Below are positions 1,429 through 29,928 of a stretch of DNA of 31,202 bases, piece by piece (positions within the stretch are counted from its first letter, which is position 1; every line of letters starts with the position of its first letter). The notes beneath the pieces are model-generated. The model saw only the letters and a list, made by a program, of their open reading frames with translations, did no database searches and had not been told where the DNA came from. Source of the stretch: an uncultured Sulfurovum sp. (GTDB taxonomy: Bacteria; Campylobacterota; Campylobacteria; Campylobacterales; Sulfurovaceae). The translations under genes and the position numbers were made by a program. The DNA is taken from NCBI GenBank assembly GCA_964457735.1, contig CAYWFW010000078.1, forward strand, positions 1 to 31,202, read 5' to 3'.

Positions 1429-3918
1429 ATGAAAGAGGAGGCTAACATGGAGTATATGGAAGTGTTAGGTGCTAATGGTAGCAGGGCAAAAAATATTTTT
1501 ACTACATGTTTTAGAGTCTCAAGAAATGTAGTTATAGATGCTGGAAATTTAATTAATATTCCAAAAGATGAAATTATGGATATAGAACATATTTTTATCT
1601 CACATACACATTTAGACCACATCGTTGATATTGCTTTTTTAATAGATAATACATTTACTCACCGTACAACTCCTCTTAAGATTTATGGATTGGCTCATAG
1701 CATAAGTATCTTTAAAAAAAATATTTTTAATTGGGATATATGGCCAGATTTTAGTTGCCTAAAACTTCCCAAACAAAATAATAATAGTATAGAGTTTATT
1801 ATTATAGAATATAATAAAAAATATATTATTGGTGATATAAGTCTTACTCCAATAAAAGCAAATCATACTGTTGATTGTAGTGGTTATTTGATTAAAAAAG
1901 ATAAAGATAGTATACTGTTTTCTGGAGATAATTACAAAAATAAAGAGCTTTGGAATATAGTTAATAAAGATAAATCAATTAATAATGTAATCTTAGATGT
2001 ATCCTTTCCAAATAGATTCTCTAATATTGCAAAACTTAGCAAACATCTAACACCAAAAGATTTACAAGATGAGTTAAAACTACTTAAAAGAGAAGTTAAT
2101 ATATCTGTATTTCATATCAAGCCAATACTTCAACAAGAGGTGATTAAAGAGCTTTTAGATATAGGGATAAAAAAGTCTCATATATTAGTTGGTGGTGAAA
2201 GAATAAGATATAAAGATGGTGTTATAACAAGAAAAAAAGAGTCTGTAACTGATGTAGATAAACTAAAAAGTTTAAATAAAATTGGTATGTTATTATCATC
2301 AGAACATAATATCTCAATGCTACTAGAGAGTATTATTGTTCAAGCTATATCATTAACAAATTGTGATGGTGGGACTTTATATTTGATGAAAGATGATAAA
2401 ATTCATTTTTATATTGCTCAAACCAAATCTCTAAATATTCTTATGGGTGGTTCTCATGAGAGTATAAAATGGTCACCTATCCCTTTATATATAGATAATC
2501 ATATTCCTAATAAACAGATAATGGCAGTATGTTCAATCTTAGAAGATAGAATTATTAATATATCAGATGTCTATGATGATTCAGAGTTCTATTTTGAAGG
2601 TGCAAAGATGTTTGATAAAACAAATGGTTATAAAACAAAATCTATACTCACTGTACCTCTAAAAAATCATAAAGATGAGATGATAGGAGTATTGCAATTG
2701 ATTAATAAATTAGATAAAGATAACAATCCTATATCATTTGATTCATTTGACAAAGATATTACACAATCACTTGCATCACAATCTGCAATTGCAATTACTA
2801 ATGCAAATTTGATAGAGGATTTTGAAAACCTTATTGAGTCATTTTTACATAGTCTTATTTATATAATAGGGGAAAAATCTCCCCATACAGCATCTCATAT
2901 ACGCCAAATGGTAACAGTAACAAATATGATTATAGAAGCAGTGGATAAAGATCAAGGTATATTTAAAAATATATCTTTTAATGAGGAACAAAAAGATGAG
3001 ATAAATCTCTCGGCTCTTATGCACGATATAGGAAAACTATCAACTCCTGATATTATCTTAAATAAAATAAATAAGTTACATATAATTTGCGATGCTATTG
3101 AGAGAATAGAAAGCAGATGTGAGATTATTAAAAGAGATATAGAGATTGAATTTTTAAATTTTAAGATAGATAATCTAAGTTCTAATAAAATTCCTGCAAA
3201 ATCTGGAACTGGTGCTTTAGCTCCAGCTTTTAGTGAGGCTAAAGCCATCACTTCCGATAAAATCTCTAATAATAGTATTGAGATAAAAAGAATAGAAGAT
3301 ATATTTACAAAACAGGTTATCCAAATCAATAATAGATTAGAGATGATAAGAGATTTTAATAAAGGTAGTGAATTTTTAACCCAAGATAAGATAGATTTTA
3401 TAAACTCAATGGCAATGATACCAATAAAGGTATTTAAAAAAGAGTATTATCTAATTACCAAAGATGAAGCCAAACTTCTATCTATATCTAAAGGGACACT
3501 AAGTAAATCAGAGAGAGATATAATAAATAATCATGCTACTGTTACTCAAAAAGCTCTTAATATGTTATCATTTCCTCAAAAATATAAGAATGTTCCTCAA
3601 ATATCAGGAAACCATCACGAAAAAATCAATGGTACTGGTTATCCAAAAGGTTTAGTAGATAATCAAATATCTTTTGAAGCAAGAATTTTGGCAATTGCTG
3701 ATATATTTGAAGCTCTTACCTCTACAAAAAGAGAGTATAGAAAACCAAATAGTGTTGCAGATGCTATGAAAATATTATATTTTATGGCAAAAGATGGAGA
3801 ACTTGATAAAAGTTTAGTTAAATTTTTTTATGACTCAAAACTATATATCAAATATGGACAACTAATAAAAAGTAATAATTTAGATGAACTTATAGGTTTT
3901 GATTTTAATAATCTATGA
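1429..3918 (+). CDS. Cyclic-nucleotide phosphodiesterase fusion: metallo-beta-lactamase (class II cAMP PDE-like) + GAF + HD-GYP
   Basis: MBL motif SHTHLDHI plus ANHTVD and FSGD. GAF motifs include CDGGTLY and YKTKSILTVPL...IGVLQLINK. HD-GYP motifs include MHDIGK, HHEKINGTGYPKGL and RILAIADIFEALTS.KR.YR. The likely true start is ATG 1447, after the SD GAGGAGG at 1435-1441. Confidence 0.88.
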   Translation: MKEEANMEYMEVLGANGSRAKNIFTTCFRVSRNVVIDAGNLINIPKDEIMDIEHIFISHTHLDHIVDIAFLIDNTFTHRTTPLKIYGLAHSISIFKKNIFNWDIWPDFSCLKLPKQNNNSIEFIIIEYNKKYIIGDISLTPIKANHTVDCSGYLIKKDKDSILFSGDNYKNKELWNIVNKDKSINNVILDVSFPNRFSNIAKLSKHLTPKDLQDELKLLKREVNISVFHIKPILQQEVIKELLDIGIKKSHILVGGERIRYKDGVITRKKESVTDVDKLKSLNKIGMLLSSEHNISMLLESIIVQAISLTNCDGGTLYLMKDDKIHFYIAQTKSLNILMGGSHESIKWSPIPLYIDNHIPNKQIMAVCSILEDRIINISDVYDDSEFYFEGAKMFDKTNGYKTKSILTVPLKNHKDEMIGVLQLINKLDKDNNPISFDSFDKDITQSLASQSAIAITNANLIEDFENLIESFLHSLIYIIGEKSPHTASHIRQMVTVTNMIIEAVDKDQGIFKNISFNEEQKDEINLSALMHDIGKLSTPDIILNKINKLHIICDAIERIESRCEIIKRDIEIEFLNFKIDNLSSNKIPAKSGTGALAPAFSEAKAITSDKISNNSIEIKRIEDIFTKQVIQINNRLEMIRDFNKGSEFLTQDKIDFINSMAMIPIKVFKKEYYLITKDEAKLLSISKGTLSKSERDIINNHATVTQKALNMLSFPQKYKNVPQISGNHHEKINGTGYPKGLVDNQISFEARILAIADIFEALTSTKREYRKPNSVADAMKILYFMAKDGELDKSLVKFFYDSKLYIKYGQLIKSNNLDELIGFDFNNL
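3187..3258 (+). repeat. REP-like palindromic element, copy A (in frame inside the HD-GYP gene)
   Basis: 72-nt stretch that matches the reverse complement of 22183-22254 at 64 of 72 positions by manual alignment. It encodes KIPAKSGTGALAPAFSEAKAITSD. Confidence 0.9.
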
Positions 3919-5275: not shown

Positions 5276-7609
5276 TTAAGCATTACTATTTAAAGATAAA
5301 GTAGACTTATTCAAGATACTTGTATGACAAATATTTTGAAAATCACAATATCCACATACTTTATCATCACTATCATTAAAGCCAAACTTACCATTTTGTA
5401 TATTATCACGAGTTGTAAAAATAAGATTCTTTAATTCCTCTTCATAGTTATCACTATAAAGTTCATAATCTTTAATATTCTCATTTGATAAATTTGCAAA
5501 GTGATAATATGGTTTATCCCCTTTAAAACTAAGAAGAGAAGCGTAATAATTTTTATCTGTAAACTGCTGTTTTACATATAAAATATACAAAGCTAACTGC
5601 ACATCTTTTAACTCTCTTATCTGCTTTATTTTTTCACTATCCAAATTGGAAATCATCTTTTTTGACTTATAATCAATCACATTTACCACACTTTTAAGTA
5701 TATCAACTCTATCGATTACACCTTTAATAAATATATCATCACTATTAATACCACAAGCATTAAGATTTTTATCTAGTGCAAATTGATATTCAAATTTGGA
5801 ATCTTGAAAATAGTTAAGTTCACTCGCTTTTTCAATGTAATAATTTACAAATTTAGCCAATAGACCATATTTATTATTATCTTTTAAGCCCGATTGTAGA
5901 GTATTAAAAAAAAGTCTATGGTGAATGGTTTTCTCTATTGTATCACTTTTTTTACTAAAAATCTTATAAGCATCTTCTGAAACTTGATACATCAATTCAA
6001 ATAATCTATCCAAATCAATATGAGTAATTTTTCTATCTCTTATTCTCTTACCAAATAACTCATAACAAAGGTGCATTAAACTTCCTTGTTCCATCACATC
6101 AAACCCCTCTTGAGTTTCAGTTGGTGCTTGAATCTTTAATCTATTTGAGTATAGATAAGCTAGAGGGCAAGAGATATATTTATTAATTTGAGAGGCTGAT
6201 AGAGTAATCTCTTTAAATCCACTAACCCCAATACCATCAAACTTAGTTAAATCTTGGCTCAAGATACTCTTATAATACTCTTTTATATTTTCATCTGATA
6301 TAACTGTTTTATTTTTTAATGATAATTGGTTAGGGCTATTTATTTCACTAATATCAATATTATAATCAAACTTATTATCCAATAAAATAGATGGCATCAA
6401 CTCTCTTTTACCACTATAATTAGCAGTAACTATATATAAATTATCAGTTAATCTCTTAAGTTCATCTAATCCAGTTTTTGCACTTGTAAAATAATTATTT
6501 GCATAGAAATATTGTAAATCTTCATCATAACTCCACAAAAAATTATCACTACCACTTCTAGGAAAACGATTAATATCTCCTCCAATAAAAATAATATGGT
6601 TATATTTATGTTCGCTTCCGACCAAATCACTTAACTCACACAACTCAATACCTATTTTTTTATCACTTATCTTAAACGATGATTTAATATTTTGTTTTAT
6701 CTTATTGCTAAGTTCTAAATCAAGCTTTTTATATAATTTATCAATAGATTTAATCTTTGAACTATACCTATTAAATACCTCTTTTACCTCTTGATTTTCA
6801 CCACTAAAATATGAGGTAAGGGACAATCCTACGGAACTATAACCACTAATTTGATACTCATCACATAACATTTTATAAAACTCATTATACTCTCTTATAT
6901 TATCTGCTACTAATAAAATATCATTAGAAGTAACACCATCTTCCATAAGCTTTCTAATAATTTTAACAGCAGTTCTAGCCTCATCAACTCTATCAAAAAC
7001 TTCAATTGAAGGTTTTATTATATTTATTTTTGGTGAGGCTAAAGCCATCACTTCCGATGAGATTAAAGGTATCACCTGTGATGATTTAAGTAAAATTTTC
7101 AAGATATTATCTTGCTGTTTAGACTTAATAAAATTTATATCTCCAACCATAAAATTATCAACATATATTTTATTAAATTTATATCTAAAATTCTTATCCC
7201 ATTGTAAAAATACAAGATTCTCTATATCTGATATATCTACTAATTTATGATTCTTTTTATATTCTTGATATTTTATATTAATTATTTGTATAGCTTCTAA
7301 TTTCTTTCCATTAAGTAAACTATCAAAACTAATATTATTCCTTGCACACTTAACTAAAAAAGAGTATATCACCCCTAAACCATCAGAATCACATCTAAAA
7401 TAATCAAAATACTCAATATGATTATCTTGAATTATCTTATAAATAAGAGATGAACCCAAAAATGTATTGATTACACTTGCAAAATTATTTTTTTCAAACT
7501 CTTGTAATATCAACTCATCTAATGTCATAACCACACATAATCCACCAACCAAATGCTTAATCTCTGTTGCTCTTTTTTGGCTAATTGTTATATATAAATC
7601 TCTATCCAT
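5276..7609 (-). CDS. AddB/RecB-family PD-(D/E)XK nuclease with a predicted 4Fe-4S cluster
   Basis: C-terminal nuclease motifs: LSASQINKYISCP, QGSLMH, KGVIDRVD, IDYKS and QLALY. Four Cys: one in SCP and three in CGYCDFQNIC. The N-terminal half is degenerate. Confidence 0.82.
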   Translation of the reverse strand: MDRDLYITISQKRATEIKHLVGGLCVVMTLDELILQEFEKNNFASVINTFLGSSLIYKIIQDNHIEYFDYFRCDSDGLGVIYSFLVKCARNNISFDSLLNGKKLEAIQIINIKYQEYKKNHKLVDISDIENLVFLQWDKNFRYKFNKIYVDNFMVGDINFIKSKQQDNILKILLKSSQVIPLISSEVMALASPKINIIKPSIEVFDRVDEARTAVKIIRKLMEDGVTSNDILLVADNIREYNEFYKMLCDEYQISGYSSVGLSLTSYFSGENQEVKEVFNRYSSKIKSIDKLYKKLDLELSNKIKQNIKSSFKISDKKIGIELCELSDLVGSEHKYNHIIFIGGDINRFPRSGSDNFLWSYDEDLQYFYANNYFTSAKTGLDELKRLTDNLYIVTANYSGKRELMPSILLDNKFDYNIDISEINSPNQLSLKNKTVISDENIKEYYKSILSQDLTKFDGIGVSGFKEITLSASQINKYISCPLAYLYSNRLKIQAPTETQEGFDVMEQGSLMHLCYELFGKRIRDRKITHIDLDRLFELMYQVSEDAYKIFSKKSDTIEKTIHHRLFFNTLQSGLKDNNKYGLLAKFVNYYIEKASELNYFQDSKFEYQFALDKNLNACGINSDDIFIKGVIDRVDILKSVVNVIDYKSKKMISNLDSEKIKQIRELKDVQLALYILYVKQQFTDKNYYASLLSFKGDKPYYHFANLSNENIKDYELYSDNYEEELKNLIFTTRDNIQNGKFGFNDSDDKVCGYCDFQNICHTSILNKSTLSLNSNA
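7033..7060 (+). repeat. REP-like element half copy B (inside the nuclease CDS, antisense to the gene)
   Basis: GTGAGGCTAAAGCCATCACTTCCGATGA, a 28-mer identical to the reverse complement of the gspJ copy. In the minus-strand gene it reads as SSEVMALAS. Confidence 0.85.
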
Positions 7610-7673
7610 TTTATAATCCTTTAAGCTTTCAAGGAATAGAAGTAAATTAAAACCAAATTTTTAAGATAAATTA

Positions 7674-7730
7674 CTCGGACACGATGGCTTTAGCCTCGTC
7701 TATGTAGGAGAGGCTAAAGCCATCTCATCC
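7674..7730. repeat. Intergenic inverted REP doublet (REPIN-like), copy C
   Basis: Perfect 15-bp inverted repeat: GATGGCTTTAGCCTC (7683-7697) and GAGGCTAAAGCCATC (7710-7724), with a 12-nt spacer. It has the same core as copies A, B and D. Confidence 0.88.
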
Positions 7731-7807
7731 AAAAAATTTTATAGGTTTTATTTATTTTCTAATCTTAAGTAATATTTAAAGGGCAACCACAAAGGATTAC
7801 CTCTTAT

Positions 7808-16800: not shown

Positions 16801-19800
16801 CACTACCCTCTTGTGTTCCATTATAATCTCTATCTATCCAAACATTTCCACCAATTTGAATAGGTTTATATTCTCCAATATCTATAGATAAATTATCATC
16901 TCCTGAAAATAAAAAAAAGTTGGTAGAATCTCCCTCATAATTACTGTTGCTATCTTGAATATTATTATCAATACTATAGTCTGTTCCGATTGTTGTTAAT
17001 GTAAAATTATATTCATCTTTTTTGATAACTTTTAAATAATATCTATCAGGTTTTAAATTGCTAAATATGTATTGCCCATCTATTGGTGTTATTGTTCCAT
17101 CATCTCCAAAAATATTTCCATCTAAATCCTGTTTAAGCTGTATCCATTTATCATATATCCATAATTGAATTTTTACATTAGATATATTATTCTCTCCACC
17201 ATCTTGAATCCCATTTGCATTTTTATCGTGCCAAACTCTATTACCTACACTTGTAGGTTCAAATATACCTGCATCAATACTTCTATTATGTTCATTACTT
17301 TCTAATGCAAATATATCGGTATATCCTGTAGCATTTACATCACTTCCATTAATATAATCTCCCGTATCTTTTAGTGTAAATTTATAACTTACATTAATAT
17401 CACTAAATTTTACAAAATAACTATTTGGAACTAGATTTTCAAAAAGATATTCTCCTGTTTGATTAGTCTCCATCTGTGCTATAGCTATTGAATTTCCAAC
17501 TTGATATAAAGTTACATTTACATCTGCTACACTATCCTCTAAAGTATCTTGAATTCCATCACCGTTATTATCTAACCAAACTCTATCACCCAAAGAGGCA
17601 AACTGATATAAACCAATATCAAACGATTGATTATCATCTGCATAATCTACATTAAATTTATCTGTAATTTTAGAGCTATTAATATCACTATCAAGAGTAT
17701 CATCTACACCTTTATCTTTTGGTGATATTTGATATTTACTATCAGGTTCAACCAATATAAAATATTCAGCAGTATGATTAATATCAAAGTTATAAATACC
17801 ACTACTATTAGTTGTAGTTGTAGTAACTAAAGTTTTATTCTCATCAAGAAGTTTTACAACAATGCCACTAAGCCCACTCTCTCCAACATCTTGAATACCA
17901 TCTGCATTCTTATCAAGCCAAACTCTATTACCAATCTTTGCAGGTTCATATACTCCCACCGTAGAACTATCTTCATTATTAGTTAAATTTTTATCTGGAG
18001 CGGATGTTGTTACAAGAGTGCTATTGATAACTTGCCCACTAGATGGATAGCTTACCACTCTTACTTTTGCAACAACTTGTATTGATTTATTATCTTCTAA
18101 AACCAAAAATCCATCATCAACTAAATTCCCAATATCACAAGCAAAACTTGTATCACCTGCTACACCACTACAACTTCCATTATCATCTTTAACTATTGGT
18201 GTAGCAATTAATTCCATACCATCAGGTAATGTATCAGTTACCTCTGTATTTGTTGCATATCCTGGACCATCATTATAAATATCAAAGGTAAAGTTAAAAT
18301 CTTGCCCAACTTCCACATTATTTAATGAAGCAGTTTTTTTTATCTCTAAATCAACAAAAGTCCTAACTGTGGTACTCTCATCTTCATGATTATTATCATA
18401 CTCTCTCTCTATCTCTAGCGTTGTTACATTTATATCATTATGATAAACATCACCCTTTACTCTATGTGGTGCATCAATAAATTCAAATGTCAAATATCGT
18501 ACAAACTCTTCTCCACTCTCTATATTAGGTATGCTACAATTTACCTCATGAGTAGATTCTGTATTATTTGGATTAAAATTATTATTAGTTGGTTCAACAC
18601 ACATATTAAAATCTTTTGTAGTAGTTCCATTAGCATCTGTACCATCTCCTAGAAATGTCATATTTTGTTCATTATTTGGAAAAACATCAATAACTTTATC
18701 TATTAGTTTGATGTTTGTAGCCTCAGATGGACCTGCATTAGTAACTGTGATTTTATAAACGATTCTATTATTATCTTTATCATTTGCATCAAATCCAAGT
18801 GGCTCAATAAAAAGTATTGATTCATCTTTTTCAATAGATATATCAACCTCTCCATTTTTAATAGGCAAAGTCTCATTTTGTTCATTATTACTCAAATTAG
18901 AATCAAGCGTACTCATTGTAACAGAGGCACTATTATTAATATCCCAAGGTTCATTATGCACCAATTTATGTGTAGGACGAATAGTGATATTTATGGTTCT
19001 ACTCTCTTTATATGCCATATCTCCTAAATCACAACTAAAAGAGCGATTATTATCATATAGAGTACAATTAGATTCACTAAATTCTATTATTTTAAACTCT
19101 TCTCCTATAAATTTATTTGTAAGATTAACATCTTTTGCTTCTGCTGAACCGTTATTAATCACCTGAATAGTATATAAGCCATTAGTCCCTGCATATATAA
19201 ACTCATCCTCACTAGCAAATGTTACATCATTTTTAGATACCATAACATCAGCTGTTGATTGTACATCTACACTAACATTACCCTCATTATTACTACGATT
19301 AGAATCAGCAATAGTAGTTGAAAAGGCTGTTGCACTATTTATTCTAACCCCTGTTGCCTTTGCACCATATACCCCAATTCTAACTCGTACTGTATCATTA
19401 ACATCAATTTTACTCAAAGTACAATTTACATCAGCACCATCTACATCACAACTATAATCATCACTACTATTACTATCTGCTATAATAGTAGTCTCTGCCC
19501 TGCCATTAAAAGCCTCTACATATTGAGGTATTTTATCAATAACTTTAATATTTGTAGCTGTTGCTGGTCCATTATTTGTAATATCAAGATAATACTCAAA
19601 TCCATTCTCGTCAGATGTAATAACAGTATCATTAGTATCTTTGTTCATCTCTAAATCTGCACTATCAGGATATGCCTTTGCTATAACCCCTTTAGATACA
19701 TTATGGTCTGTTGTATTTAAATCAGGATAGTCTAGTCTATCATTATTAATTGATGCAATATTTGTAATATTTACATCCTCATTAGCTTTAGTCTTTATAA

Positions 19801-21337
19801 TTAATTCAGGAGATTCTCCAAATAGTGCTTGTGAATAATCACAGGTTACTCTCTGTCCACTAACACTACAATTCCAATCAGTCCCACTACTACTTACATA
19901 AGTTTCATTATCATCCAAATCATCAAATATCTGTAGAGGTGTTGCATATTGTGGACCATAATTAGTTACCTTGATTTTAGAAACTGCTATTTGACCAACA
20001 ACAATAGGATTACCATCAACATGTTCTTGTTCTATCTCTTTTGCTTTAGAGATAGTTACATTAGATTGATTTGCCCAAAGAGTATAATTTTTGGTTGAAC
20101 TATCATCATTACCATTTGTATCTGTTGTGCTTGTAGTAAGAGATGCTATATTTGTATAATCATGGTCTTGATTATCTGTTATATCAGGAGATTGCGTCTT
20201 TATGGTGATATTATCATCATAACCTGCAGTTAAATTACCATCATAACTACAAGTAACTGTTGCACTAGAGAGGGTACAATTCCAATTAGCAGGTGCTGTT
20301 ATATTATCTTCACTCAATCCATGAGCAAAATCATCGGGGATAGTATCTGTAACAACAACATCTACGGCATCCATATAACCTTTATTCATAATATTTAACT
20401 TAAATGTAGCTACCTCATTTTCCAATAAAACCTTAGGTCTTTTATATTTTTTAATAGCTACATTTGTACCCTCTATTATAGTAATATTTACATCTTTAAT
20501 ATTATTATTTAAATCAATATCTATAATTGTAGTATCAGATGTTACACTAGCACCCTGCCCTAAATCACCTAAAATACCATTATTAGATTTTGCTCTAAAA
20601 TAAAAAGTTTTTGTATCATTAAGATTTAATATACCTCTATTACAAGTTACAACTTGCCCTGATGCACTACAACTCCAACTACTATCATCATCTGTTGGAG
20701 TTTCAGCATTATCAGCATAAAATTCAAGTCCAGTAGGAAGTGTTGTCTCAAAATTTATATTGCTAGTATCAAAAGGACCATGATTTTCCACCACCATTTT
20801 ATATGTAACTATCCCACTAGAAGGGATTGTTGAAACAGGGGCTTCATAACTCACTAACTCTACATCAGCACTCTCTACAATAGTTGTTTTAACATTTTCG
20901 CTATCATTAGCATTATTTACATCACCATCATAATAAGCAGTTGCTATACTTTTAAATACACCTTTATCCATACCAGCTTTAACTGTAATATTAATATCTT
21001 TTGAGCTATTTCCTACAAAAGTACTAAATTCACAAATTACCTGATCTGCAGACTCCCCATTACTTGGAGTAGCACCAGAATAATCACAATCATCAGGAAA
21101 ATTTGTGGTATTATATTCAAATCCTATAGGAATTTTTACCTTTAGGGTTACCGTTTCATTGGTATCTGTACTAGTATTATTGTGAAGTTTTACATGATAA
21201 TAAAATATTGAACCAGCAGGTGTCAAATCATTACTATCTTCAAAAACAGTAGGTTGCATATCTGCATTAAGTGCAAATAAATTATTAATAAATATGATAT
21301 TAAACAGCAAAAATGTATAAATAAAACGAATTAGCAT
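7808..21337 (-). CDS. Giant (4,509 aa) repetitive surface adhesin: DUF11 x8, SdrD-B-like x23, Big_9-like x3, CshA-type fibril repeat-like x3, C-terminal TM anchor
   Basis: Signal peptide MLIRFIYTFLLFNIIFINNLFA and SD AAGGA at about 21345-21349. Eight Y/F-x-x-x-x-x-N-x-G(P)-type DUF11 motifs. 23 G(D/N)RxWxDxNxNGxQD...D(M/A)G(I/L)Y units counted by hand. Three A.DD...I..L.ND...YxP..GF.G.D.F.Y units. Three EGxWxI...FTP...G..T.I.Y units. It ends in a hydrophobic helix followed by KKEEI. Confidence 0.9.
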   Translation of the reverse strand: MLIRFIYTFLLFNIIFINNLFALNADMQPTVFEDSNDLTPAGSIFYYHVKLHNNTSTDTNETVTLKVKIPIGFEYNTTNFPDDCDYSGATPSNGESADQVICEFSTFVGNSSKDINITVKAGMDKGVFKSIATAYYDGDVNNANDSENVKTTIVESADVELVSYEAPVSTIPSSGIVTYKMVVENHGPFDTSNINFETTLPTGLEFYADNAETPTDDDSSWSCSASGQVVTCNRGILNLNDTKTFYFRAKSNNGILGDLGQGASVTSDTTIIDIDLNNNIKDVNITIIEGTNVAIKKYKRPKVLLENEVATFKLNIMNKGYMDAVDVVVTDTIPDDFAHGLSEDNITAPANWNCTLSSATVTCSYDGNLTAGYDDNITIKTQSPDITDNQDHDYTNIASLTTSTTDTNGNDDSSTKNYTLWANQSNVTISKAKEIEQEHVDGNPIVVGQIAVSKIKVTNYGPQYATPLQIFDDLDDNETYVSSSGTDWNCSVSGQRVTCDYSQALFGESPELIIKTKANEDVNITNIASINNDRLDYPDLNTTDHNVSKGVIAKAYPDSADLEMNKDTNDTVITSDENGFEYYLDITNNGPATATNIKVIDKIPQYVEAFNGRAETTIIADSNSSDDYSCDVDGADVNCTLSKIDVNDTVRVRIGVYGAKATGVRINSATAFSTTIADSNRSNNEGNVSVDVQSTADVMVSKNDVTFASEDEFIYAGTNGLYTIQVINNGSAEAKDVNLTNKFIGEEFKIIEFSESNCTLYDNNRSFSCDLGDMAYKESRTINITIRPTHKLVHNEPWDINNSASVTMSTLDSNLSNNEQNETLPIKNGEVDISIEKDESILFIEPLGFDANDKDNNRIVYKITVTNAGPSEATNIKLIDKVIDVFPNNEQNMTFLGDGTDANGTTTKDFNMCVEPTNNNFNPNNTESTHEVNCSIPNIESGEEFVRYLTFEFIDAPHRVKGDVYHNDINVTTLEIEREYDNNHEDESTTVRTFVDLEIKKTASLNNVEVGQDFNFTFDIYNDGPGYATNTEVTDTLPDGMELIATPIVKDDNGSCSGVAGDTSFACDIGNLVDDGFLVLEDNKSIQVVAKVRVVSYPSSGQVINSTLVTTSAPDKNLTNNEDSSTVGVYEPAKIGNRVWLDKNADGIQDVGESGLSGIVVKLLDENKTLVTTTTTNSSGIYNFDINHTAEYFILVEPDSKYQISPKDKGVDDTLDSDINSSKITDKFNVDYADDNQSFDIGLYQFASLGDRVWLDNNGDGIQDTLEDSVADVNVTLYQVGNSIAIAQMETNQTGEYLFENLVPNSYFVKFSDINVSYKFTLKDTGDYINGSDVNATGYTDIFALESNEHNRSIDAGIFEPTSVGNRVWHDKNANGIQDGGENNISNVKIQLWIYDKWIQLKQDLDGNIFGDDGTITPIDGQYIFSNLKPDRYYLKVIKKDEYNFTLTTIGTDYSIDNNIQDSNSNYEGDSTNFFLFSGDDNLSIDIGEYKPIQIGGNVWIDRDYNGTQEGSEDNVSNVTVTLITDGTITATTTTTDSNGSYIFDNLLPNHTYGVEFSDIPEHYLFTKQDIGDDSNDSDANITTGRTIQTDIMYSGDSNLTLDAGIYNPIVIGDFVWEDDNYNGIQDSGENGVSGVVVKLVIDDIVQNDINTTTNNNGKYYFGRALKLEPDHNYSVEFVIPNGWFATKQNIGNHNGKDSDADNTGKMDEGERLYSGENTYKFDMGIYQKASLGDRVWIDKNGNGIQDNGELNVTSNDINVTLYSTTLGEVNSTLATNGEYLFSGLNPDSYYVIFDKSTLPTEYVFTEANISNNTNDLFDSDVNRTTGKSDTLFLSSGEDNRSIDAGIYKAVDIGDRIWHDIDANGVQDGVESNSSEVVHITLVDINGLEANRTIDSNSSGYLFKNVRPGSYYIDFVVPSQYEISPKNTTSDGLDSDINPSTHRTANFDVVSNEDDFSIDMGIYQNISIGDRIWYDTNMNGIQDVGENNLSVAVTVELWDEDGTLVDTNITTNGEYLFTDFIPSNYYLKFTLPDNYAISPKNSVGSDDNNDSDINSTMKTDIIIMDSNAKNFSVDVGMYELASIGNRIWLDSNANGIQDIDENNVNEDINVTLYYDSNGSIARSEIISDGSYHFTGLIPTDYNLSFSVPTGYFISPQDVGVDSNDTDVNSITLRTITTNLETGENDLSWDMGIYQKASLGNRVWYDDNGDGVQNSGELNVTDVNVTLYDGLGNELSSMKTVDGAYLFDELVPDSYYVIFDKATLPTGYIFTEQNITGSSELEDSDANTTTGISDIIELSSNEHNRSLDAGIYKPINLGDRIWEDTNADGIQDVNEKNTTQSITVTLYDTNHREANKSATVTNGDYLFTNVRPGNYQVEFSLPTGYKISYENSGSDDLIDNDVNPTTKITQAFDLTSNINDLSQDMGIYQDASLGDRVWIDANGNGVQDNNELNVSGVTVKLHLVSDDSEVQSTTTNADGEYLFEHIRPQSYYVLFSDLDTNYIFTLANQENNNSVDSDVDENGKSEEITLISNEHNRSIDAGIVLPITIGDKIWVDTNANGVQDLGEGNYSENLEVKLYYENNDSIYKTITATNGEYEFTNVIPDNYYIGFEIPTTYYTSPKNIGNDINNDSDTNSAGFTAPFSIHSGDNNLTLDMGIYQKASLGNRVWIDANGNGLQDNGEINATDVNVTLYSTTYLDVNITQETNSSGYLFKDLKPGDYYVVFDNRTLPSDIYIFTEQDRLNDDTIDSDVNATTGISDTLFLSSGDNNLTIDAGIYEPVVKVGDRIWEDANANGIQDIGEGNYIGGNITITLVDNNGLEPNVTILTNDGNYTFTKVRPGNYHLEFTLPTNYHISFKDNTDNHSDSDIDPITKRSDDFDIVSGIDDLSWDMGIYQNASLGDRIWIDNDGDGLQGIGELNISESIDVTLYYENNKSVAQIVTTTNGEYQFDNLIPEKYYVMFSDLNTSYRFTVKDSGEDANDSDVNATGYSDAFELKSDEHNRSVDVGILLPVSIGDRIWLDANANGVQDVSEINTNEEINVTLYYDGNKSIARTLTTTDGNYLFNNLNPQRYYIGFELPEDYYVSPKARATDNNNSDVNGDGFTDSFAIYSGDNNLSIDMGIYEKASIGDEIWYDINMDGIRDVSETGVSVPVLVKLFDVNGSLVATQNSVNGVYRFIDLIPSGYIVEFELPNNYALSPMNVGGDDATDSDVNVTTMRSDVIKISDSGDVDLSIDMGIYELASIGDRIWLDANANGVQDSDESNYIGSISVALYNASGTLISRKNISNGVYLFDELEPDDYYIQFSLPSGYILSDRDVSSDGVDSDVGVSNLRTISTNLAPAENDMSWDMGIYQPVSIGDRVWLDANADGVQDEDEQNYDGDIMVELYKMGVKIQEITINDGEYLFSGLRPSEYSIKVILPDGYYLSPQGMGDDNSSDSDMGVESFESDTVVLSSGANLDNLDIGIYQFGSIGDRIWYDTNMNGIQDLNESGVDENISVRLYNSDNKKVREVYSNNGVYLFDDLIPDGYSVEFELIDGYIVTKANRGSYEIDSDVGANMRSGEMMLRSGEDNRSIDMGVYESVSIGDRIWLDVNGNGLQDDDELNFEMDMVVQLYSSDDNLIREITVSDGVYLFDELEPNEYYIKVELPDGYVITKQNVGDEDNQTINSDVNASSMRSDMILLNPADANMSIDIGVYQLASIGDEIWLDENANGVQDNGESGVNIEIEVVLYDINGSEVDRLITVTGDYMFSDVKPSSYFIKFIVDDGYLFSNIGNDGVSDIIEILSGEKNEVMDIGIYLINNEILENSIDALDDEVSTLKDKNISIPVMNNDYDLNGDEFEIIRFDENSSGGGVISKDGDNLVYVPKDGFIGLDMFKYEIIDSNGLRSEATVRVNVLELSSFPIAFDDKFVTDMDVSLEIDILGNDIHTMDENISLLSVENSASGSVEILDNGLVKYVPNNGFSGVDRFSYVIIDDDGDESKAVVTVIVTKPIIEQPKIVLPPLETQSVPIAKLDRVSTYEFTSVVIDLLSNDSHTTGDKISLVDVEKPSNGILILKDNGTIIYIPNIGFSGDDRFYYTIEDSDGDRDTAVVIITVIKDKLVEAITPKVDEPNNKVIETPIEDNITKPDENKTIELTPTTPTVPALAIDDECGEFVINDDFFEGLRDEVAHIDVFENDILVGNQFDYDSLIFIDENDELVSIIEIANEGIWSIDNEKGLIIFTPIEGFKGMATEIKYIVNTLNGCKPITGGATIYVSYPEVKDDVIELPEDAVAGKDSVTVDIFANDPIKDPVLSTLQIKGTDNPGDSLIVEGEGTWIINEDKITFTPFDGFLGDPTPIEYIVKNHEGESTNYGKVEIHYPIKARDDIGKIDPGVPVTIDILSDDNGNLDKTSVILLLPKGFSVPGTEISTDGKTITVPREGTWQVNENGTVTFTPDPLLVGSPTPIEYSVFNKDGDKVAGAKITVECLGCICEGQIDSADSSSGLSIILLMLLTLLLVGFVSKKEEI
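9945..17945 (-). repeat. Tandem array of 23 SdrD B-like Ig domains (about 116 aa each) inside the adhesin
   Basis: Runs from KIGNRVWLDKNADG (about 17940) to DIGIYL (about 9945). It includes a 45-bp exact DNA duplicate at 13334-13378 and 14729-14773. Confidence 0.88.
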
Positions 21338-21378: not shown

Positions 21379-21475
21379 TTATTTAGCGACTCGGCAATCT
21401 TATATGAGTAAGATAAAGGATAAGACCCGTAGTTTTCCGTCCTATTTTCACAAATAGTTTGGCTTTTATAAAGAA
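21379..21475 (-). promoter_or_regulatory. Cyclic di-GMP-I (GEMM) riboswitch upstream of the giant adhesin
   Basis: The minus strand reads UUCUUUAUAAAAGCCAAACUAUUUGUGAAAAUAGGACGGAAAACUACGGGUCUUA...UAAGAUUGCCGAGUCGCUAAAUAA. P2 is CUAUUU/AAAUAG with a GNRA (GUGA) loop, followed by the GACG(C/G)AAA junction. P3 pairs ACU/AGU, CGG/CCG and UCUUA/UAAGA. P1 is UUCUUUA/UAAAUAA. The orientation matches the adhesin gene, whose ATG is about 40 nt downstream. Confidence 0.9.
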
Positions 21476-21531: not shown

Positions 21532-22269
21532 CTAAAACATACCATTTTTCATATCTTCTTTGACTTTAGTGGTAGTTGGTGTTACTTTTTGAATCGGTCT
21601 GGAACTAGGAAGAGGTCTTTTTTTATGATTATTTATTTTTTTCTTTTTTTTCTTCTTTTTAATTGGTTCCATCACCCCTTGAACCATAAAAGATATAGGA
21701 TTAGTTGAGCCTTTAGAATCTAATATAACAAGAACTCTATCTTTATTTCTAGCTACATAAAAATGGGTTATATCTTTCATAACCTCATCTATTTCAACTT
21801 TTGCTTCAGAACTAGTTGGTAGTTTGTAATTATTTCCCTCTATACGAAGAAGTCTATTATCCTCTTTTGCTATTACCCAGCAAACTTTAGCAGAGTTTAA
21901 ACTATATAGTGAATTAGTTGTATCTTCTATACAAAAACGGGTAAAATCATCTTGTTTAATTGTTAAATTACCATCCGATTTGAGAATATCAAGATATAAC
22001 ATCTTAATACCTTTTAACTCTTGTGTACTTTTTTGTAGATAATTGAAAAGATGAGTATTTGATGCTCTTGCCATATCTAAAGTTCTAAATAATACCAATA
22101 TCACAAATCCCAATATTGCAATAGATATTAATACTTCTATTAAAGTAAAAGCTTTTTTACTATTATGTATCTTACAAAATTCATCGGAAGTGATGGCTTT
22201 AGCCTCACTAATATCAGGAGCTAAAGCATCAGTTCCAAGTTTTGAAAGAATTTTAGTATCATTATGCAC
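21532..22269 (-). CDS. gspJ: T2SS minor pseudopilin (GspJ-like) with a leader lengthened by a REP insertion
   Basis: Prepilin motif KKAF|TLIEVLISIAILG. Size and beta-rich body fit GspJ. GTG start lies 2 nt after the gspE stop. The letter assignment is inferred. Confidence 0.7.
   Translation of the reverse strand: MHNDTKILSKLGTDALAPDISEAKAITSDEFCKIHNSKKAFTLIEVLISIAILGFVILVLFRTLDMARASNTHLFNYLQKSTQELKGIKMLYLDILKSDGNLTIKQDDFTRFCIEDTTNSLYSLNSAKVCWVIAKEDNRLLRIEGNNYKLPTSSEAKVEIDEVMKDITHFYVARNKDRVLVILDSKGSTNPISFMVQGVMEPIKKKKKKKKINNHKKRPLPSSRPIQKVTPTTTKVKEDMKNGMF
22183..22254 (-). repeat. REP-like palindromic element, copy D (in frame in the gspJ leader)
   Basis: 64/72 identical to copy A. It encodes KILSKLGTDALAPDISEAKAITSD. 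Confidence 0.9.
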
Positions 22270-22271
22270 AA

Positions 22272-23786
22272 TTATCCATCCATTATCCCGACTCTAAGAG
22301 CCTCTTGATAGCTAGTAGTTCCATTTTCTACCATCATTTTTAATTGATCTGCAATTGTTTGCATCCCCTGTTTTTTCATCTCTACTCTAATTTGATGGTC
22401 TGTATATTTTTGTTTCATCATCTCTTTTACACTATCATTCAAGACAAATAACTCTCCAACTGCTGCTCTACCTTTATATCCAGTAAAATCACAATTTGTA
22501 CAACCAACTGCTTTTTTTGTATTTGTATAAAATGATAAATTTAAATCTTTAACTACATTTTGAGATAAAACAGTCTCTTCACAACAAGATACACATAACT
22601 TTCTAACCAATCTTTGAGCCAAAACACCTAAAAGTGTAGATGAGATTAAATAATCATGTATCCCCATATCCATCAATCTTGTTATAGATGAAGTTGCATC
22701 ATTCGTATGAAGAGTTGATAAAAGAAGGTGTCCTGTTAATGCTGATTGAAGAGCAATAACCCCTGTTTCTTGGTCTCTAATCTCACCAATCATTATAACA
22801 TCTGGGTCTTGACGAAGAATTGAACGAAGTGCCGCCGAAAATGTTAATCCAACTTTTGAATTAACTTGAATCTGATTAATATTATCTGCATTATACTCCA
22901 CTGGATCTTCAACTGTAATAATATTTTTATCGGGCGTTGCAATATGTTGTAAAAATGAGTGTAAGGTTGTAGATTTTCCTGACCCTGTTGGACCAGTTAC
23001 AAGTATCATTCCATGAGAATGTTTTAGCAAATCATAGAATTTTTTTGTTAAATTATCTTCAAATCCCAAATCTGATAGAGTTGGTATATGTTCACTTTGC
23101 ATCAAGATTCTCATAACAATTCTTTCACCATAATAAGTTGGCAAAATAGATACCCTAACATCAAGAGTTTTGCCAGAGATTTTTAGTTGAGTTCTCCCAT
23201 CTTGAGGTACTCTTTTTTCTGATATATCAAGATTAGAGATAACTTTTATACGGTTAATTACAAGTTCAATAATTTTTTTATCCAAATCAAGATGCTTTTT
23301 TAATGCTCCATCAACACGAAGTCTAACCTCACCCTTCTTCTCTCCACTTTCAATATGAATATCACTCGCATTCTTTTGAATTGCTTGAAAAAACAGAGAG
23401 TTTACAAGTTTTATAATAGGAGCAGACTCCTCACTAGATAACAAATCTTGTGAGTTTTGAATAAATTCTAAAAGATCTGATTCAACCTCAATAAGCTCTT
23501 CTGTAGCTTCTGATGATATATTCTCAAAATCAGAACCAGTTTGAAGCTCTTGAAATTTATGAAGTAATCTATTATAACTATCATCATCAACAAGATATAG
23601 CTCATAATCTATAGATAACTGAGACATATAGTTTAATGCTGAAGATAACTCATCCTCTTTTGTTACAGATATTTTTTGACTATCTAAGCTAGAAAAGAGT
23701 AAAGAATGTTTTATAGATAATCTATAATCCATCCCCTCTTCCCATAATGGTTCAAGATTTACATCTTTTAATATTGGTAACTGCAT
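22272..23786 (-). CDS. gspE: T2SS ATPase GspE
   Basis: ASDIHIE, RVPQDGR, Walker A GPTGSGKST, TVEDPVEY, LRQDPDVIMIGEIRD, TGHLLLSTLHTN, and the Zn-binding CxxC...CxxC (CVSCC, CTNC). The start is probably ATG 23786 (MQLPIL), 1 nt after the gspD stop; the ORF track starts at 23831. Confidence 0.95.
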   Translation of the reverse strand: MQLPILKDVNLEPLWEEGMDYRLSIKHSLLFSSLDSQKISVTKEDELSSALNYMSQLSIDYELYLVDDDSYNRLLHKFQELQTGSDFENISSEATEELIEVESDLLEFIQNSQDLLSSEESAPIIKLVNSLFFQAIQKNASDIHIESGEKKGEVRLRVDGALKKHLDLDKKIIELVINRIKVISNLDISEKRVPQDGRTQLKISGKTLDVRVSILPTYYGERIVMRILMQSEHIPTLSDLGFEDNLTKKFYDLLKHSHGMILVTGPTGSGKSTTLHSFLQHIATPDKNIITVEDPVEYNADNINQIQVNSKVGLTFSAALRSILRQDPDVIMIGEIRDQETGVIALQSALTGHLLLSTLHTNDATSSITRLMDMGIHDYLISSTLLGVLAQRLVRKLCVSCCEETVLSQNVVKDLNLSFYTNTKKAVGCTNCDFTGYKGRAAVGELFVLNDSVKEMMKQKYTDHQIRVEMKKQGMQTIADQLKMMVENGTTSYQEALRVGIMDG

Positions 23787-23787
23787 T

Positions 23788-25818
23788 TTACTGTCCTGGA
23801 ATAAATATTGTATCACTCTCTTCATCATCATGAAAATGGATTCTATTGCTTGCAGGGTGAAGTGGTTTCGCTGGAGTTGAAGCTGTTGTAGATTGACCTA
23901 TACGACCACTAGAACCTTTATTTTTTAATCTCTTTTCTAACCCTTTGTAAACAAGAGAGTTATATTTTATCTGAAGAGTATCAAGTTCTGATAACATTTT
24001 TCTTAGCTTTTGTAAATCTCCACTTTTTCTTACAATATATGGAGTAATATATATCACAACATTTACACTGCTATCAGAATCAGATGTTGATCTAAATAAC
24101 TCTCCTATAATTGGAATATCACCTAATAATGGAACTTTTGTTGTACCTTTACCTGCTGATTTTTTAATAAGTCCACCCACAATAATGGTCTCACCATTAT
24201 TAACAATTGCATTTGTAATAACTTTTCTCTTTGTTGTTGTTGGTCTATCAGATAATGACCCAGACCCACCAAGAACATCCTCAATTATAGCCTCTATGCT
24301 AAGGGTTACTTTATTATTGCTGGATAATCTAGGTTTTACCTTAAGGGTTATACCAATATCCTCTCTACTGTAACTATTTCTTGTTAAATCTTGTGCATTA
24401 TTACCTTTGGCACTACTTGTAAGAATTGATTGAGTTTGACCAACATAAATAGATGCCTCTTTATTATTTGTACACAAAATTGAAGGTTCACTAAGAATTT
24501 GAGCTCCACCATTTTGACTAAGCATATCAATCTTAGCTCCTAATGCAAATACTTCAGATATATTTGATGAAAACTTAAATGGTGTATCGGTGCTTGTAAT
24601 TGCATTACCATTTGCATCATAATTTGTTGATTGAGTATTTAGAAAACCTAAAAGATTTTGAGACACCATCATAGATGATCCACCAAGCATCCCACCAGCA
24701 ACAGAGAAAAGACCTTGAGATGTGATTTGTCCACCCTCAAATCCATATCTTACCCCTAATGCTGTAGCAACATTTTTATTAATCTCAACAATCTTCGCTT
24801 TAACAAAAACTTGTGGTTTTTCAACATCTAATTTAGCAATAGTATCTTTTATATTATCTATCTGTTCAGATGATGCCAAAATAATAAGTGCATTTCTTTC
24901 TACATCGCTCACAACCATAGCTTTTTGTGGCTTAATAACTTTACCCTTAACTTTAGATCGAGCTACCTGAACACCATTCATCTGAGAGATAATTTTAGAT
25001 AGAATCTTTTCCATCTCTTCAACATTTGAATTTTCAAGAGGGATAACATACATTTGTTGCTCTATATTTTCACCTTCAACATCTAGTTGCTTAATATAAG
25101 TTACCATTCTATTTACATTATCTCTTTTACCCACAAGAATAATTGTACTAGTTGCTTCATCTTTCATAATATCAACTTTTTCACTCTCAATAGCCTGAGG
25201 AAAAAGCTTTTTTGCCATTGCCAATGCATTTATATAAACACTTTTTGCAGAAGCATTTTTGAGTTTAATAAATACAGAACCTTTTTTACTCTGATCTTCA
25301 ATAGAATCAATAAGTTTTTTAATCGATTTAAGAGTTCTAGGATTTGCTGTAATTGATAACATATTATTATTTTTAAATGCAACAACCTTAGCATTTTTAT
25401 GCAAAAGAGGTTTGATTTTTGCTCTTAATACAGATGCGTTTGAACCTTTAAGTGTAAAAACCACTGTTTTCATGGTATTACCACTAATTTTACTACTAAC
25501 TTCTAGCCCTTCTCCTGCTGCATCACCAGCTTTTACAACTTTATAAAAATCGCCCAAATCTATAAGTGTAAGCCCTTTTCCTGCAAGAATAGAGTTTGCC
25601 AAAGGGATTAAAGAACTTTTTTTGATAGGCTTTGTAGATACAAAATTTACTTTACCGTTTAGTTTACTATCAACTAAAATATTTTTATTTGTAATCTTGC
25701 TTATCATCTCTATAAAATCTTTTAGCTCTAAATCTCTAAAATTTACATCCACTTGATCCTCGGCAAAATTTAGCGATATAACTAACATCATACCTAATAC
25801 TATTTTATTTAATTTCAT
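23788..25818 (-). CDS. gspD: T2SS secretin GspD
   Basis: Signal peptide; N0 domain VNFRDLELKDFI; repeated N domains; QVFVKAKIVEI; secretin motifs DIGITLKVKP and KVPLLGDIPIIGELFRS...ITPYIV. Confidence 0.95.
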   Translation of the reverse strand: MKLNKIVLGMMLVISLNFAEDQVDVNFRDLELKDFIEMISKITNKNILVDSKLNGKVNFVSTKPIKKSSLIPLANSILAGKGLTLIDLGDFYKVVKAGDAAGEGLEVSSKISGNTMKTVVFTLKGSNASVLRAKIKPLLHKNAKVVAFKNNNMLSITANPRTLKSIKKLIDSIEDQSKKGSVFIKLKNASAKSVYINALAMAKKLFPQAIESEKVDIMKDEATSTIILVGKRDNVNRMVTYIKQLDVEGENIEQQMYVIPLENSNVEEMEKILSKIISQMNGVQVARSKVKGKVIKPQKAMVVSDVERNALIILASSEQIDNIKDTIAKLDVEKPQVFVKAKIVEINKNVATALGVRYGFEGGQITSQGLFSVAGGMLGGSSMMVSQNLLGFLNTQSTNYDANGNAITSTDTPFKFSSNISEVFALGAKIDMLSQNGGAQILSEPSILCTNNKEASIYVGQTQSILTSSAKGNNAQDLTRNSYSREDIGITLKVKPRLSSNNKVTLSIEAIIEDVLGGSGSLSDRPTTTKRKVITNAIVNNGETIIVGGLIKKSAGKGTTKVPLLGDIPIIGELFRSTSDSDSSVNVVIYITPYIVRKSGDLQKLRKMLSELDTLQIKYNSLVYKGLEKRLKNKGSSGRIGQSTTASTPAKPLHPASNRIHFHDDEESDTIFIPGQ

Positions 25819-26647
25819 ACTCTAACTCCATTTCCTTATTTCTTCTTTTTATTGTAAGCGTTAAATTTTCAATAGTATCTATCTCTTTATATAAAGATAC
25901 TGCACTTGAATAACTATCAAGCTCTTCACCATTTACAGCCATAATCGTATCACCTCTTTGAATCCCAAGTTTTTCAAAATCACTACCTTTTTTAACAAAT
26001 TTAACCTTAAATCCATTAACAACATCTCCATTTCTAACAGCATTTATACCAATATCTTTCCAAATACTTTTGCTATCTTTTTTATAGTTTTGAAGAAGCC
26101 CTCTTTTTACTATTTTTGTATATCCATCATCTACAATTGCAGGAGTATCGTCATCTTTTGCCCCTTTTCTTTGAGGAACTTCCCTTACCATTGATTTGAT
26201 ATTTGAATTTACTGACTTACTTTTTTTAATAAATTGAACCGTATAACTTTTACCATTCTTTGTAAAAATTGCATAATCTCTTGTAGCACTACTTAAGGTA
26301 AAGCCATTAATCTCTTCACCTTTTGCCAAAACCTTTATTTTAGCTTTTGATTGTACAGTTACAACTAATCTATCTGCTGAATTATATATTGCCAAAAGCT
26401 TAATACTATTAATACTACTTTGTGGTTTTTGTATAACTTTTGCAACTTTTGGTGCAACAGATTTACTATTTTTAGATAAATTTAGACGATAATATAATGC
26501 TTTTGCTTTTTTATTGGATAAAAGCTCTTGACCAGATGATGGTAAAAACATAGCTGTAATAACAACATATATTAATTTAATCACCAACATCACTATCAAA
26601 ATAGGTATCATATTTTTAATACTCTCTGCATTAAATATTTTTTTCAT
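25805..26647 (-). CDS. gspC: T2SS GspC-like protein (TM + HR + PDZ)
   Basis: N-terminal TM helix, an HR-like region, and a C-terminal PDZ (KLGIQRGDTIMAVNG...LTIKR). Immediately upstream of gspD. Confidence 0.85.
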   Translation of the reverse strand: MKKIFNAESIKNMIPILIVMLVIKLIYVVITAMFLPSSGQELLSNKKAKALYYRLNLSKNSKSVAPKVAKVIQKPQSSINSIKLLAIYNSADRLVVTVQSKAKIKVLAKGEEINGFTLSSATRDYAIFTKNGKSYTVQFIKKSKSVNSNIKSMVREVPQRKGAKDDDTPAIVDDGYTKIVKRGLLQNYKKDSKSIWKDIGINAVRNGDVVNGFKVKFVKKGSDFEKLGIQRGDTIMAVNGEELDSYSSAVSLYKEIDTIENLTLTIKRRNKEMELEYEIK

Positions 26648-29921: not shown

Positions 29922-29928
29922 ATATAAT

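Follow-up and report, generated by a model that had tools for sequence, protein, structure and literature searches.

The type II secretion system (T2SS) genes of an uncultured Sulfurovum sp. raise the question of how a minor pseudopilin came to carry a leader of 40 residues, and of what the additional residues mean for the protein and for the DNA that encodes them. The window analysed here is a whole contig stretch of 31,202 nucleotides (nt; contig CAYWFW010000078.1 of assembly GCA_964457735.1), on which all coordinates are given, and the gene in question encodes a GspJ-like protein of 245 amino acids (21532..22269, minus strand). Its class III signal peptide with glutamate at +5 is matched by PF07963 (31.8 bits) and TIGR02532, the segment with A40, F41, T42, L43 and E45 being encoded at 22135..22152 on the minus strand. 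Since the PF07963 match (amino acids 36-61) starts only at residue 36, the leader is unusually long. The five residues are invariant among the aligned homologues, with alanine rather than glycine at -1; this alanine (22150-22152, minus strand) is the same in all 34 aligned homologues. Short leaders of about 3-24 residues are found in 118 of the 119 scorable proteins among the best 120 homologues listed, and in these 118 the AFTLIE motif starts at residue 4-25, mostly at 6 or 11. An earlier note, made from the letters of the DNA alone, had expected such short leaders in the orthologues and had attributed the long one to a 99-bp insertion of a repetitive extragenic palindrome (REP) flanked by CATAAT direct repeats.

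Our analysis leads to a different account of the insertion, to which we assign a probability of roughly 80% as a whole: a 92-nt element resembling a MITE (miniature inverted-repeat transposable element) inserted at a TA in the leader of the GspJ-like pseudopilin gene of this Sulfurovum-like genome. In this account a non-autonomous, MITE-like palindrome would have inserted at a TA between codons 5 and 6, and the open reading frame (ORF) would have stayed open because the net gain is 90 nt and frame +1 of the element is free of stops. The class III leader would thereby have been extended from 10 residues (MHNDTNSKKA) to 40. The long leader would remain cytoplasmic, preceding the transmembrane helix, and would then be cut by prepilin peptidase at A↓FTLIE, so that the mature pseudopilin would be unchanged and the insertion nearly neutral. 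In kind this is a clear yet fairly ordinary selfish repeat tolerated inside a gene, namely a MITE with in-frame insertion like that of the Rickettsia palindromic elements (RPEs).

The insertion is present in some close relatives and absent from others. In the 90%-identity protein cluster of the GspJ-like gene, through which the empty alleles were found, filled alleles have 244-246 amino acids and empty alleles 212-216; the window protein would have about 215 without the insert. The alleles of the window, L119, L155 and L153 are filled, and those of L150, L151/L152 and the sister species L118 are empty, the three empty alleles being 82-90% identical in the gene body. The filled ORF begins GTG CAT AAT GAT ACT AAA ATT and has 39 codons before GCT, whereas each of the three empty alleles has nine: GTG CAA AAA GAT TAT AAT AGA AAA AAA GCT TTT in L151, GTG CAG TTA AAT TAT AAT AGA AAA AAA GCT TTT in L150 and GTG AAA TTA AAG TAT AAT AGA AAA AGA GCT TTT in L118. 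The net gain is therefore 90 nt, or 30 codons. Removal of the element together with one TA (90 nt) from the filled allele leaves GTG CAT AAT GAT ACT AAT AGT AAA AAA GCT TTT, which aligns with the empty alleles with zero indels, and a BLAST search with the joined flanks spans the junction at about 90% identity. An anchored metagenome scan for the empty allele (GGATGGATARTTGTG N3-33 GCTTTTACTTTAATWGAAGT) returned 0 matches. As reconstructed from these alignments, the ancestral leader is MHNDTNSKKA, of 10 residues and now of 40, and the leaders of empty alleles are alike (MQKDYNRKKA, MQLNYNRKKA). The central claim of the earlier note, that a lineage-specific, in-frame insertion of a repeated palindrome expanded the prepilin leader, is borne out by empty alleles that are shorter by 30 codons. 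Its insertion size of 99 bp gives way to a net gain of 90 nt from an element of 92 nt, and its restored leader, MHNSKKAF, is replaced by MHNDTNSKKA, in keeping with the nine codons before GCT in the three empty alleles.

From TA to TA the element occupies 22164..22255 on the minus strand; its 92 nt are the modal length of the family, and the empty alleles are shorter by exactly 90 nt. Read in element frame +1, this copy gives KILSKLGTDALAPDISEAKAITSDEFCKIH, which corresponds to codons 6-35 of the ORF. The left terminal inverted repeat (TIR), TAAAATTCTTTCAAAAC (22239..22255, minus strand), opens with the left TA (22255-22254) and has the family consensus TAGACTTCTTGCAAAAC, and the right TIR, ATTTTGTAAGATACATA (22164..22180, minus strand), closes with the right TA (22165-22164) and has the consensus GTTTTGCAAGAAGTCTA. 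Between them lies the inner hairpin core, GGAACTGATGCTTTAGCTCC ... GAGGCTAAAGCCATCACTTCC (22186..22236, minus strand), the best conserved of the family's modules. In public vent metagenomes, 22181-22217 is covered about 40-fold more deeply than the flanking gene, and contigs that stem from other copies of the element align only within 22170-22254. The population itself is represented in the DNA runs X1 and X4.

The CATAAT hexamers of the earlier note do lie at 22266-22261 and 22167-22162 on the minus strand, 99 nt apart, with a long imperfect hairpin between them (-36.3 kcal/mol over 161 nt, z = -2.46). If they were a 6-nt target-site duplication around a 93-nt element, the net gain would be 99 nt and the ancestral leader MHNSKKAF; removal of 99 nt indeed keeps the frame, and MAFFT is able to place the gap accordingly. 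Against this, CATAAT occurs 57 times in the window and 57.05 times in shuffles, and in this AT-rich DNA a direct repeat of at least 6 nt is common to 16% of random pairs of 21-nt windows placed 92 nt apart, so that the pair is best regarded as a chance repeat. The left hexamer (22261..22266, minus strand) consists of host codons 2-3 (CAT AAT), 5 nt upstream of the true insertion point, and is no target-site duplication; the right one (22162..22167, minus strand) joins CA, from the end of the element, to the terminal TA and to AT, with which the flank begins. Compared with 48 canonical copies, a 99-nt excision leaves five extra nucleotides (GATAC) at the left and takes four (CATA) of the conserved right terminus. 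As it yields a six-codon leader, it also requires an extra 9-nt indel relative to all three empty alleles; moreover, the GAT that it assigns to the element matches codon 4 of the empty alleles (GAT/AAT/AAG), and the contigs from other copies never pass 22254. We consider a 99-nt insertion with a CATAAT duplication barely credible.

The element belongs to a sizeable family. More than 117 stretches with the core GAGGCTAAAGCCATCNNNTCC were found among the matches listed in a scan of one genome per species, almost all of them in metagenome-assembled genomes (MAGs) of Sulfurovum/Campylobacterota from hydrothermal vents, with at least 25 in a single MAG; a metagenome scan with a subfamily arm added 28 more matches. 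Full copies have 17-nt TIRs, TAGACTTCTTGCAAAAC ... GTTTTGCAAGAAGTCTA, around the conserved inner hairpin, and they end in TA. Among 48 distinct full copies the length from TA to TA is 92 nt in 31 and 93 nt in 10. TIR matches with at most 3 mismatches number 72 for the left and 62 for the right repeat, 36 pairs being 90-99 nt apart. The modal length of 92 nt leaves no room to encode a transposase. Folding is equally good on the two strands (means -33.0 and -32.2 kcal/mol), which argues for a DNA palindrome; the idea of a strand-specific RNA structure with G-U wobble is rejected on the same ground. Rfam gave no family for the element, whether the window was searched at gathering thresholds or 22100-22320 at E <= 1, the sole match being a chance small nucleolar RNA (E 0.64), and a BLAST search of plasmids with the element gave no match. 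We found no description of this repeat family, or of any Sulfurovum MITE, in a literature search.

The ends of the copies bear on how the element moves. A TA stands at both ends of the insert in the filled alleles and once in each of the three empty ones, and the net gain of 90 nt equals 92 - 2. This single filled/empty comparison, at one locus and with TA also the conserved terminus of the element, is consistent with a TA duplication, which would suggest a cut-and-paste enzyme of the Tc1/IS630 type. At a second filled/empty pair, L044 and L085, the intergenic region is too diverged for the junction to be read. In 44% of full copies, as against the 16% of random window pairs, the two ends share a direct repeat of at least 6 nt, and the right flank often repeats the left terminus of the element itself, as in TAATAGTCT or ATTAACCA (L008, L007, L053, L137 and other canonical copies); these repeats may reflect a preference for TAATAG-like targets.

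An alternative origin is that of a REP doublet (REPIN) moved by a tyrosine transposase of the RAYT (REP-associated tyrosine transposase) type instead of a TA-duplicating MITE. By inspection, the inner core can be taken as a pair of small hairpins in inverted orientation, CGGAGAC-TTTA-GTCCCG and CGAGGC-TAAA-GCCATCG, and the same core occurs with other outer arms in a sister family; in addition, Sulfurovum sp. NBC37-1 is reported to have GTAG and CGTC REPs along with RAYT genes (PMC3733652). What speaks for a MITE-like element instead is the combination of conserved 17-nt TIRs, TA ends and a fixed length of 92 nt, whereas GTAG/CGTC REPs are described in that source as units of 20-40 bp that carry a GTAG or CGTC tag left unpaired. 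Across 48 copies the consensus does not show the 20-40 nt palindrome with unpaired GTAG/CGTC tag that typifies REPs and REPINs, and has no GTAG head; the sequence compared, that of the known RAYT-linked REP of Sulfurovum (GTAGGGTGTTGTACCCCTACAACACC), is unrelated. A REPIN is thus unlikely, and the term REP of the earlier note does not hold in its strict sense, given the 17-nt TIRs and TA ends and the lack of a visible GTAG/CGTC head. The sister family itself is seen at 7668-7743 of the window and in L005, L085, L096, L107 and L116: it has the same core hairpin, GGTGCTTTAGCTCC ... GAGGCTAAAGCCATC, and different outer arms, AATGCCAATGAAATAAGG ... CTTAATTCATTGGCATT, so that the core has the look of a module that several types of element have in common.

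For the host gene, the first issue is whether the element is translated. The GTG start codon (22267..22269, minus strand) of the ORF at 21532-22269 stands where the earlier note had placed it; in every allele, filled or empty, the start lies 2 bases past the gspE stop, being ATG in L153, and gspE and the GspJ-like gene are probably translationally coupled. There is no in-frame ATG, GTG or TTG between this start and AFTLIE, which excludes the downstream start that would have undone the earlier proposal; the protein can consequently be made only by reading through the element in frame +1. Filled alleles of 244, 245 and 246 amino acids are all open, although their lineages are about 10% diverged in nucleotides, and the allele of 246 amino acids has an in-frame indel of +3 nt inside the element. 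In the mature part, the ratio of nonsynonymous to synonymous divergence (dN/dS) is 0.092 between two filled lineages and 0.095-0.109 between filled and empty ones; by this measure the element-bearing gene is under the same purifying selection as the empty alleles. The open frames, together with a mature-part dN/dS equal to that of empty alleles, make it very probable that the element is translated and that the gene is functional. From such translation a peptide such as ILSKLGTDALAPDISEAK would be expected.

The opposite outcome would be that the insertion inactivated the gene or led to the use of another start, the long leader never being made or processed and the ORF decaying as a pseudogene. 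A leader of 40 residues lies outside the described range, the start codon is followed at about 20 nt by a hairpin of -28 kcal/mol, and the metatranscriptomes X16-X18 leave the gene uncovered, all of which could be taken in favour of decay. Yet the dN/dS of 0.09 between filled lineages that are about 10% diverged is the same as between filled and empty ones, the frame has been kept at 244, 245 and 246 amino acids through a 3-nt indel in the element, and there is no alternative start. Nor was any terminator-like site found, so a reading of the hairpin as an intrinsic terminator is not supported. On this evidence we regard inactivation as quite improbable.

If the element is translated, the fate of the leader depends on prepilin peptidase. 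Prepilin leaders stay cytoplasmic and are removed on the cytoplasmic face of the membrane; those of type IV pilins are described as having 6-26 residues and those of type IVb about 15-30 (PMC4471445). Type IVb prepilins such as TcpA, BfpA and CofA, whose hydrophilic leaders of 15-30 residues are cleaved off by the peptidase on the cytoplasmic side (PMC4471445), offer the closest parallel. Their leaders, however, are native and conserved, whereas here the leader of a T2SS minor pseudopilin has gained 30 residues from a mobile element, its 40 residues lie beyond that range, and the -1 residue is alanine instead of glycine. In the AlphaFold model, residues 1-40 are of low confidence and disordered, and are followed by a long pilin helix (43-96) and a beta-sheet. 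We infer that the peptidase would cleave this leader at A↓FTLIE, before the phenylalanine and with glutamate at +5, and not after it as had been proposed. The argument that the leader is a neutral niche for insertions builds on its established cytoplasmic topology.

Several observations weigh against the scheme as a whole. A leader of 40 residues exceeds what has been described, and its processing is accordingly not guaranteed. In the three metatranscriptomes of the same study (X16-X18) the gene is uncovered, the matches being low-complexity ones to the A-run only. No autonomous insertion sequence with the TIRs of the element was seen in about 1.02 Mb of loci examined, a span that does not extend to whole genomes; three distant TIR pairs enclose no transposase, and the pair in L084 encloses an ordinary gene. 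As TA is a conserved terminus of the element, duplication of a TA cannot be told apart from insertion of a 90-nt element beside a TA, and the comparison comes from one filled/empty locus. Finally, the filled alleles are not monophyletic by their flanking sequence, L153 being nearest to the empty L151, which calls for recombination or a second event.

The last point can be followed further. The flanks of the filled L153 are 95% identical to those of L151 and 90-92% identical to those of the filled window clade, while L153 and the window have an 11-nt left flank and the element in common. Synonymous divergence (dS) is lower in the insert (0.107) than in the gene (0.405). These data suggest short-tract recombination of the leader cassette as the simplest reading of the discordance between L153 and L151. 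Precise excision as the source of the empty L151 was considered and is unlikely, because L151 retains the outgroup-type TAT AAT AGA.

The same cassette can be viewed as a sign of function, the long leader acting as a cytoplasmic propeptide that delays or regulates processing, or the hairpin tuning the coupling of gspE to gspJ; either would account for the persistence and spread of the filled allele. It is found in two lineages with non-sister flanks, its dS is low compared with that of the gene, and the two substitutions inside the insert between the window and L119 are both synonymous. The numbers are tiny, though, at 2 against about 6 expected synonymous changes, and the dN/dS of 0.41 in the insert is above that of the mature part. 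Close relatives fare well with empty alleles, and palindrome constraint or short-tract recombination would account for the same data. We give a functional leader little credence, and retain a nearly neutral insertion of a mobile palindrome as the preferred reading.

The name given to the host gene deserves comment. The GspJ profile TIGR01711 scores 13.9 bits, through the N-terminal motif only, against a cut-off of 64.85. In a Foldseek comparison that used a model with a predicted local distance difference test score (pLDDT) of only 68, the top 8 matches in the PDB are all minor-pseudopilin entries that contain GspJ (E 6e-4 to 4e-2, TM-score on target 0.45-0.60); XcpW/EpsJ accounts for five of the eight, as chains or entries (3nje_B, 5vtm_W and 3cfi_B among them), and the other three are from multi-chain complexes in which chain identity was unchecked. 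The gene also lies within a T2SS cluster, directly downstream of genes for a GspC-like protein, GspD and GspE. The T2SS ATPase gene gspE (PF00437; 22272..23831, minus strand) immediately precedes it; further upstream come gspD (23788-25818) and, at 25805-26647, a gspC-like gene with a PDZ domain, and gspG with two more prepilin-type genes is found at 29484-30866 on the plus strand. The fold matches and this position together make GspJ-like minor pseudopilin a fair name, and the gspJ identity of the earlier note stands at the level of the modelled fold, below the TIGR01711 cut-off.

Two further features of these pseudopilins may be mentioned. Those of the window (GspJ-like and 29484-30866, plus strand) mostly have alanine instead of the canonical glycine at -1 (KKAFTLIE, KKAFSLLE, KKAFTIIE), one member of the cluster having glycine (RYGFSLLE). 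Near the C-terminus of the GspJ-like protein an A-rich run that codes for poly-lysine (21620-21660, minus strand) differs in length among alleles P0121, P0126 and P0130, from KKKKK to KKKKKKKK and longer, and may be prone to slippage.

The leader copy is one of 4 copies or fragments of the element within the window. A second in-frame copy (3186..3268, plus strand; 83 nt, net 81) reads KIPAKSGTGALAPAFSEAKAITSDKIS in the same frame inside the HD-GYP domain of a protein of 829 amino acids (1429-3918); taken at about 3183-3269, its 87 nt are 85% identical to the leader copy, and homologues that are 43-51% identical to the protein show a gap of some 30-40 residues at this site. A look-up of this HD-GYP protein in the protein-cluster collection gave no entry of identical sequence. 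A half copy that comprises the right arm (7032..7061, plus strand) lies in a PD-(D/E)XK AddB/RecB-like ORF (5276-7609, minus strand), where it is in frame on the opposite strand and reads SSEVMALASPK. The orthologue in L144 also carries this right-arm half copy, which marks it as an older, eroded insertion. The remaining one is the intergenic copy of the sister family at 7668..7743, with shared core hairpin and different outer arms.

Copies within coding sequence are found in the family at large. Stop-free spans of at least 150 codons surround 34 of 134 sampled copies, and in about 20 of these there are at least 50 codons on both sides. The hosts are, by Pfam, ordinary conserved proteins in which domains flank the insert on both sides: CarB and DnaX, HypF with its two copies, a FolC-like ligase, a PepD-type M20 peptidase and a flavoprotein of the SdhA/FrdA-like kind. 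Frames +1, +2, -1 and -2 are each open in 35-65% of 92-nt copies as compared with 14% of shuffles, whereas frame 0 is closed on either strand by the terminal TAG/TAA. Among individual loci, L090 encodes a HypF with two in-frame copies, a single stop-free span of L098 contains three in tandem, and L051 has six core matches within 3 kb.

Elements with comparable features are known from other bacteria. The Correia/NEMIS elements of Neisseria and the ERIC elements of Enterobacteria duplicate a TA. The present element resembles these families in size, TIRs, a TA at the insertion site, copy number, hairpins and intragenic copies; it differs in TIR sequence, Correia elements have known promoter, integration host factor (IHF)-site and RNase III effects, and its in-frame coding copies, as counted above, appear to be more frequent. 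These families measure about 100-150 bp, have TIRs and dozens to hundreds of copies, form long hairpins when transcribed and are occasionally intragenic (PMC10969869). Intragenic REPs of the GTAG and CGTC superfamilies, according to Di Nocera et al. 2013 (PMC3733652), often lie in replication and repair genes and at N-termini, and Sulfurovum sp. NBC37-1 is listed there as a carrier of both superfamilies.

In its behaviour the element also resembles RPE-1 to RPE-10 (Ogata et al.), as they are summarised in PMC10969869 and PMC3733652. According to these summaries, RPEs are likewise short palindromes inserted in frame in unrelated housekeeping genes, N-termini included, where a peptide is added and the protein kept, and several of their reading frames are open. 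As summarised, they are about 100-150 bp long and belong to obligate intracellular Alphaproteobacteria, whereas the present element, at 92 nt, is found in vent Campylobacterota that are free-living. The two are different families, likened here in the way they work and with no sequence comparison run, and a TA-flanked TIR structure is evident in the present one. With somewhat less than even confidence, we propose that the element is the Sulfurovum counterpart of RPEs: a selfish repeat so shaped that its translation does no harm, which would routinely decorate essential proteins of free-living deep-sea-vent chemolithoautotrophs (CarB, DnaX, HypF, SdhA-like, FolC-like, PepD, HD-GYP and GspJ-like proteins), its filled alleles moving from lineage to lineage by recombination. 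A net length of 3n, four of six frames mostly open and hydrophilic, disordered encoded peptides fit this tentative view.

The surroundings of the pseudopilin gene offer observations of a different kind. Just downstream of it lies a c-di-GMP-I (GGC variant) riboswitch aptamer (21381-21472, minus strand; RF03167, 62.2 bits against a gathering threshold of 59) in the leader of the ORF at 7808-21337, and the HD-GYP protein at 1429-3918, of the c-di-GMP phosphodiesterase type, is encoded in the same window. This ORF (minus strand) specifies a repetitive surface protein of 4509 amino acids with 23 SdrD B-like repeats and DUF11, Big_9, cadherin-like and CshA repeat domains. The giant gene comes directly after the T2SS genes, and its product could be an adhesin under the control of c-di-GMP and perhaps also a substrate of the T2SS.

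For the Sulfurovum-like Campylobacterota, these results describe an abundant repeat family that inserts in frame in housekeeping genes. The family matters for the annotation of MAGs, in which it gives rise to spurious insertions and to assemblies that break at the repeat; it informs how proteins tolerate foreign segments, and its copies are natural presence/absence markers for vent populations. The cleaved cytoplasmic leader of a class III signal peptide appears to be a place where mobile DNA can land in frame and be tolerated, and if processing were confirmed, the GspJ-like protein would be a prepilin peptidase substrate whose leader, at some 40 residues, goes beyond the 6-30 described. Should the parallel with RPEs prove true, coding selfish DNA of this kind would not be peculiar to the reduced genomes of intracellular bacteria.

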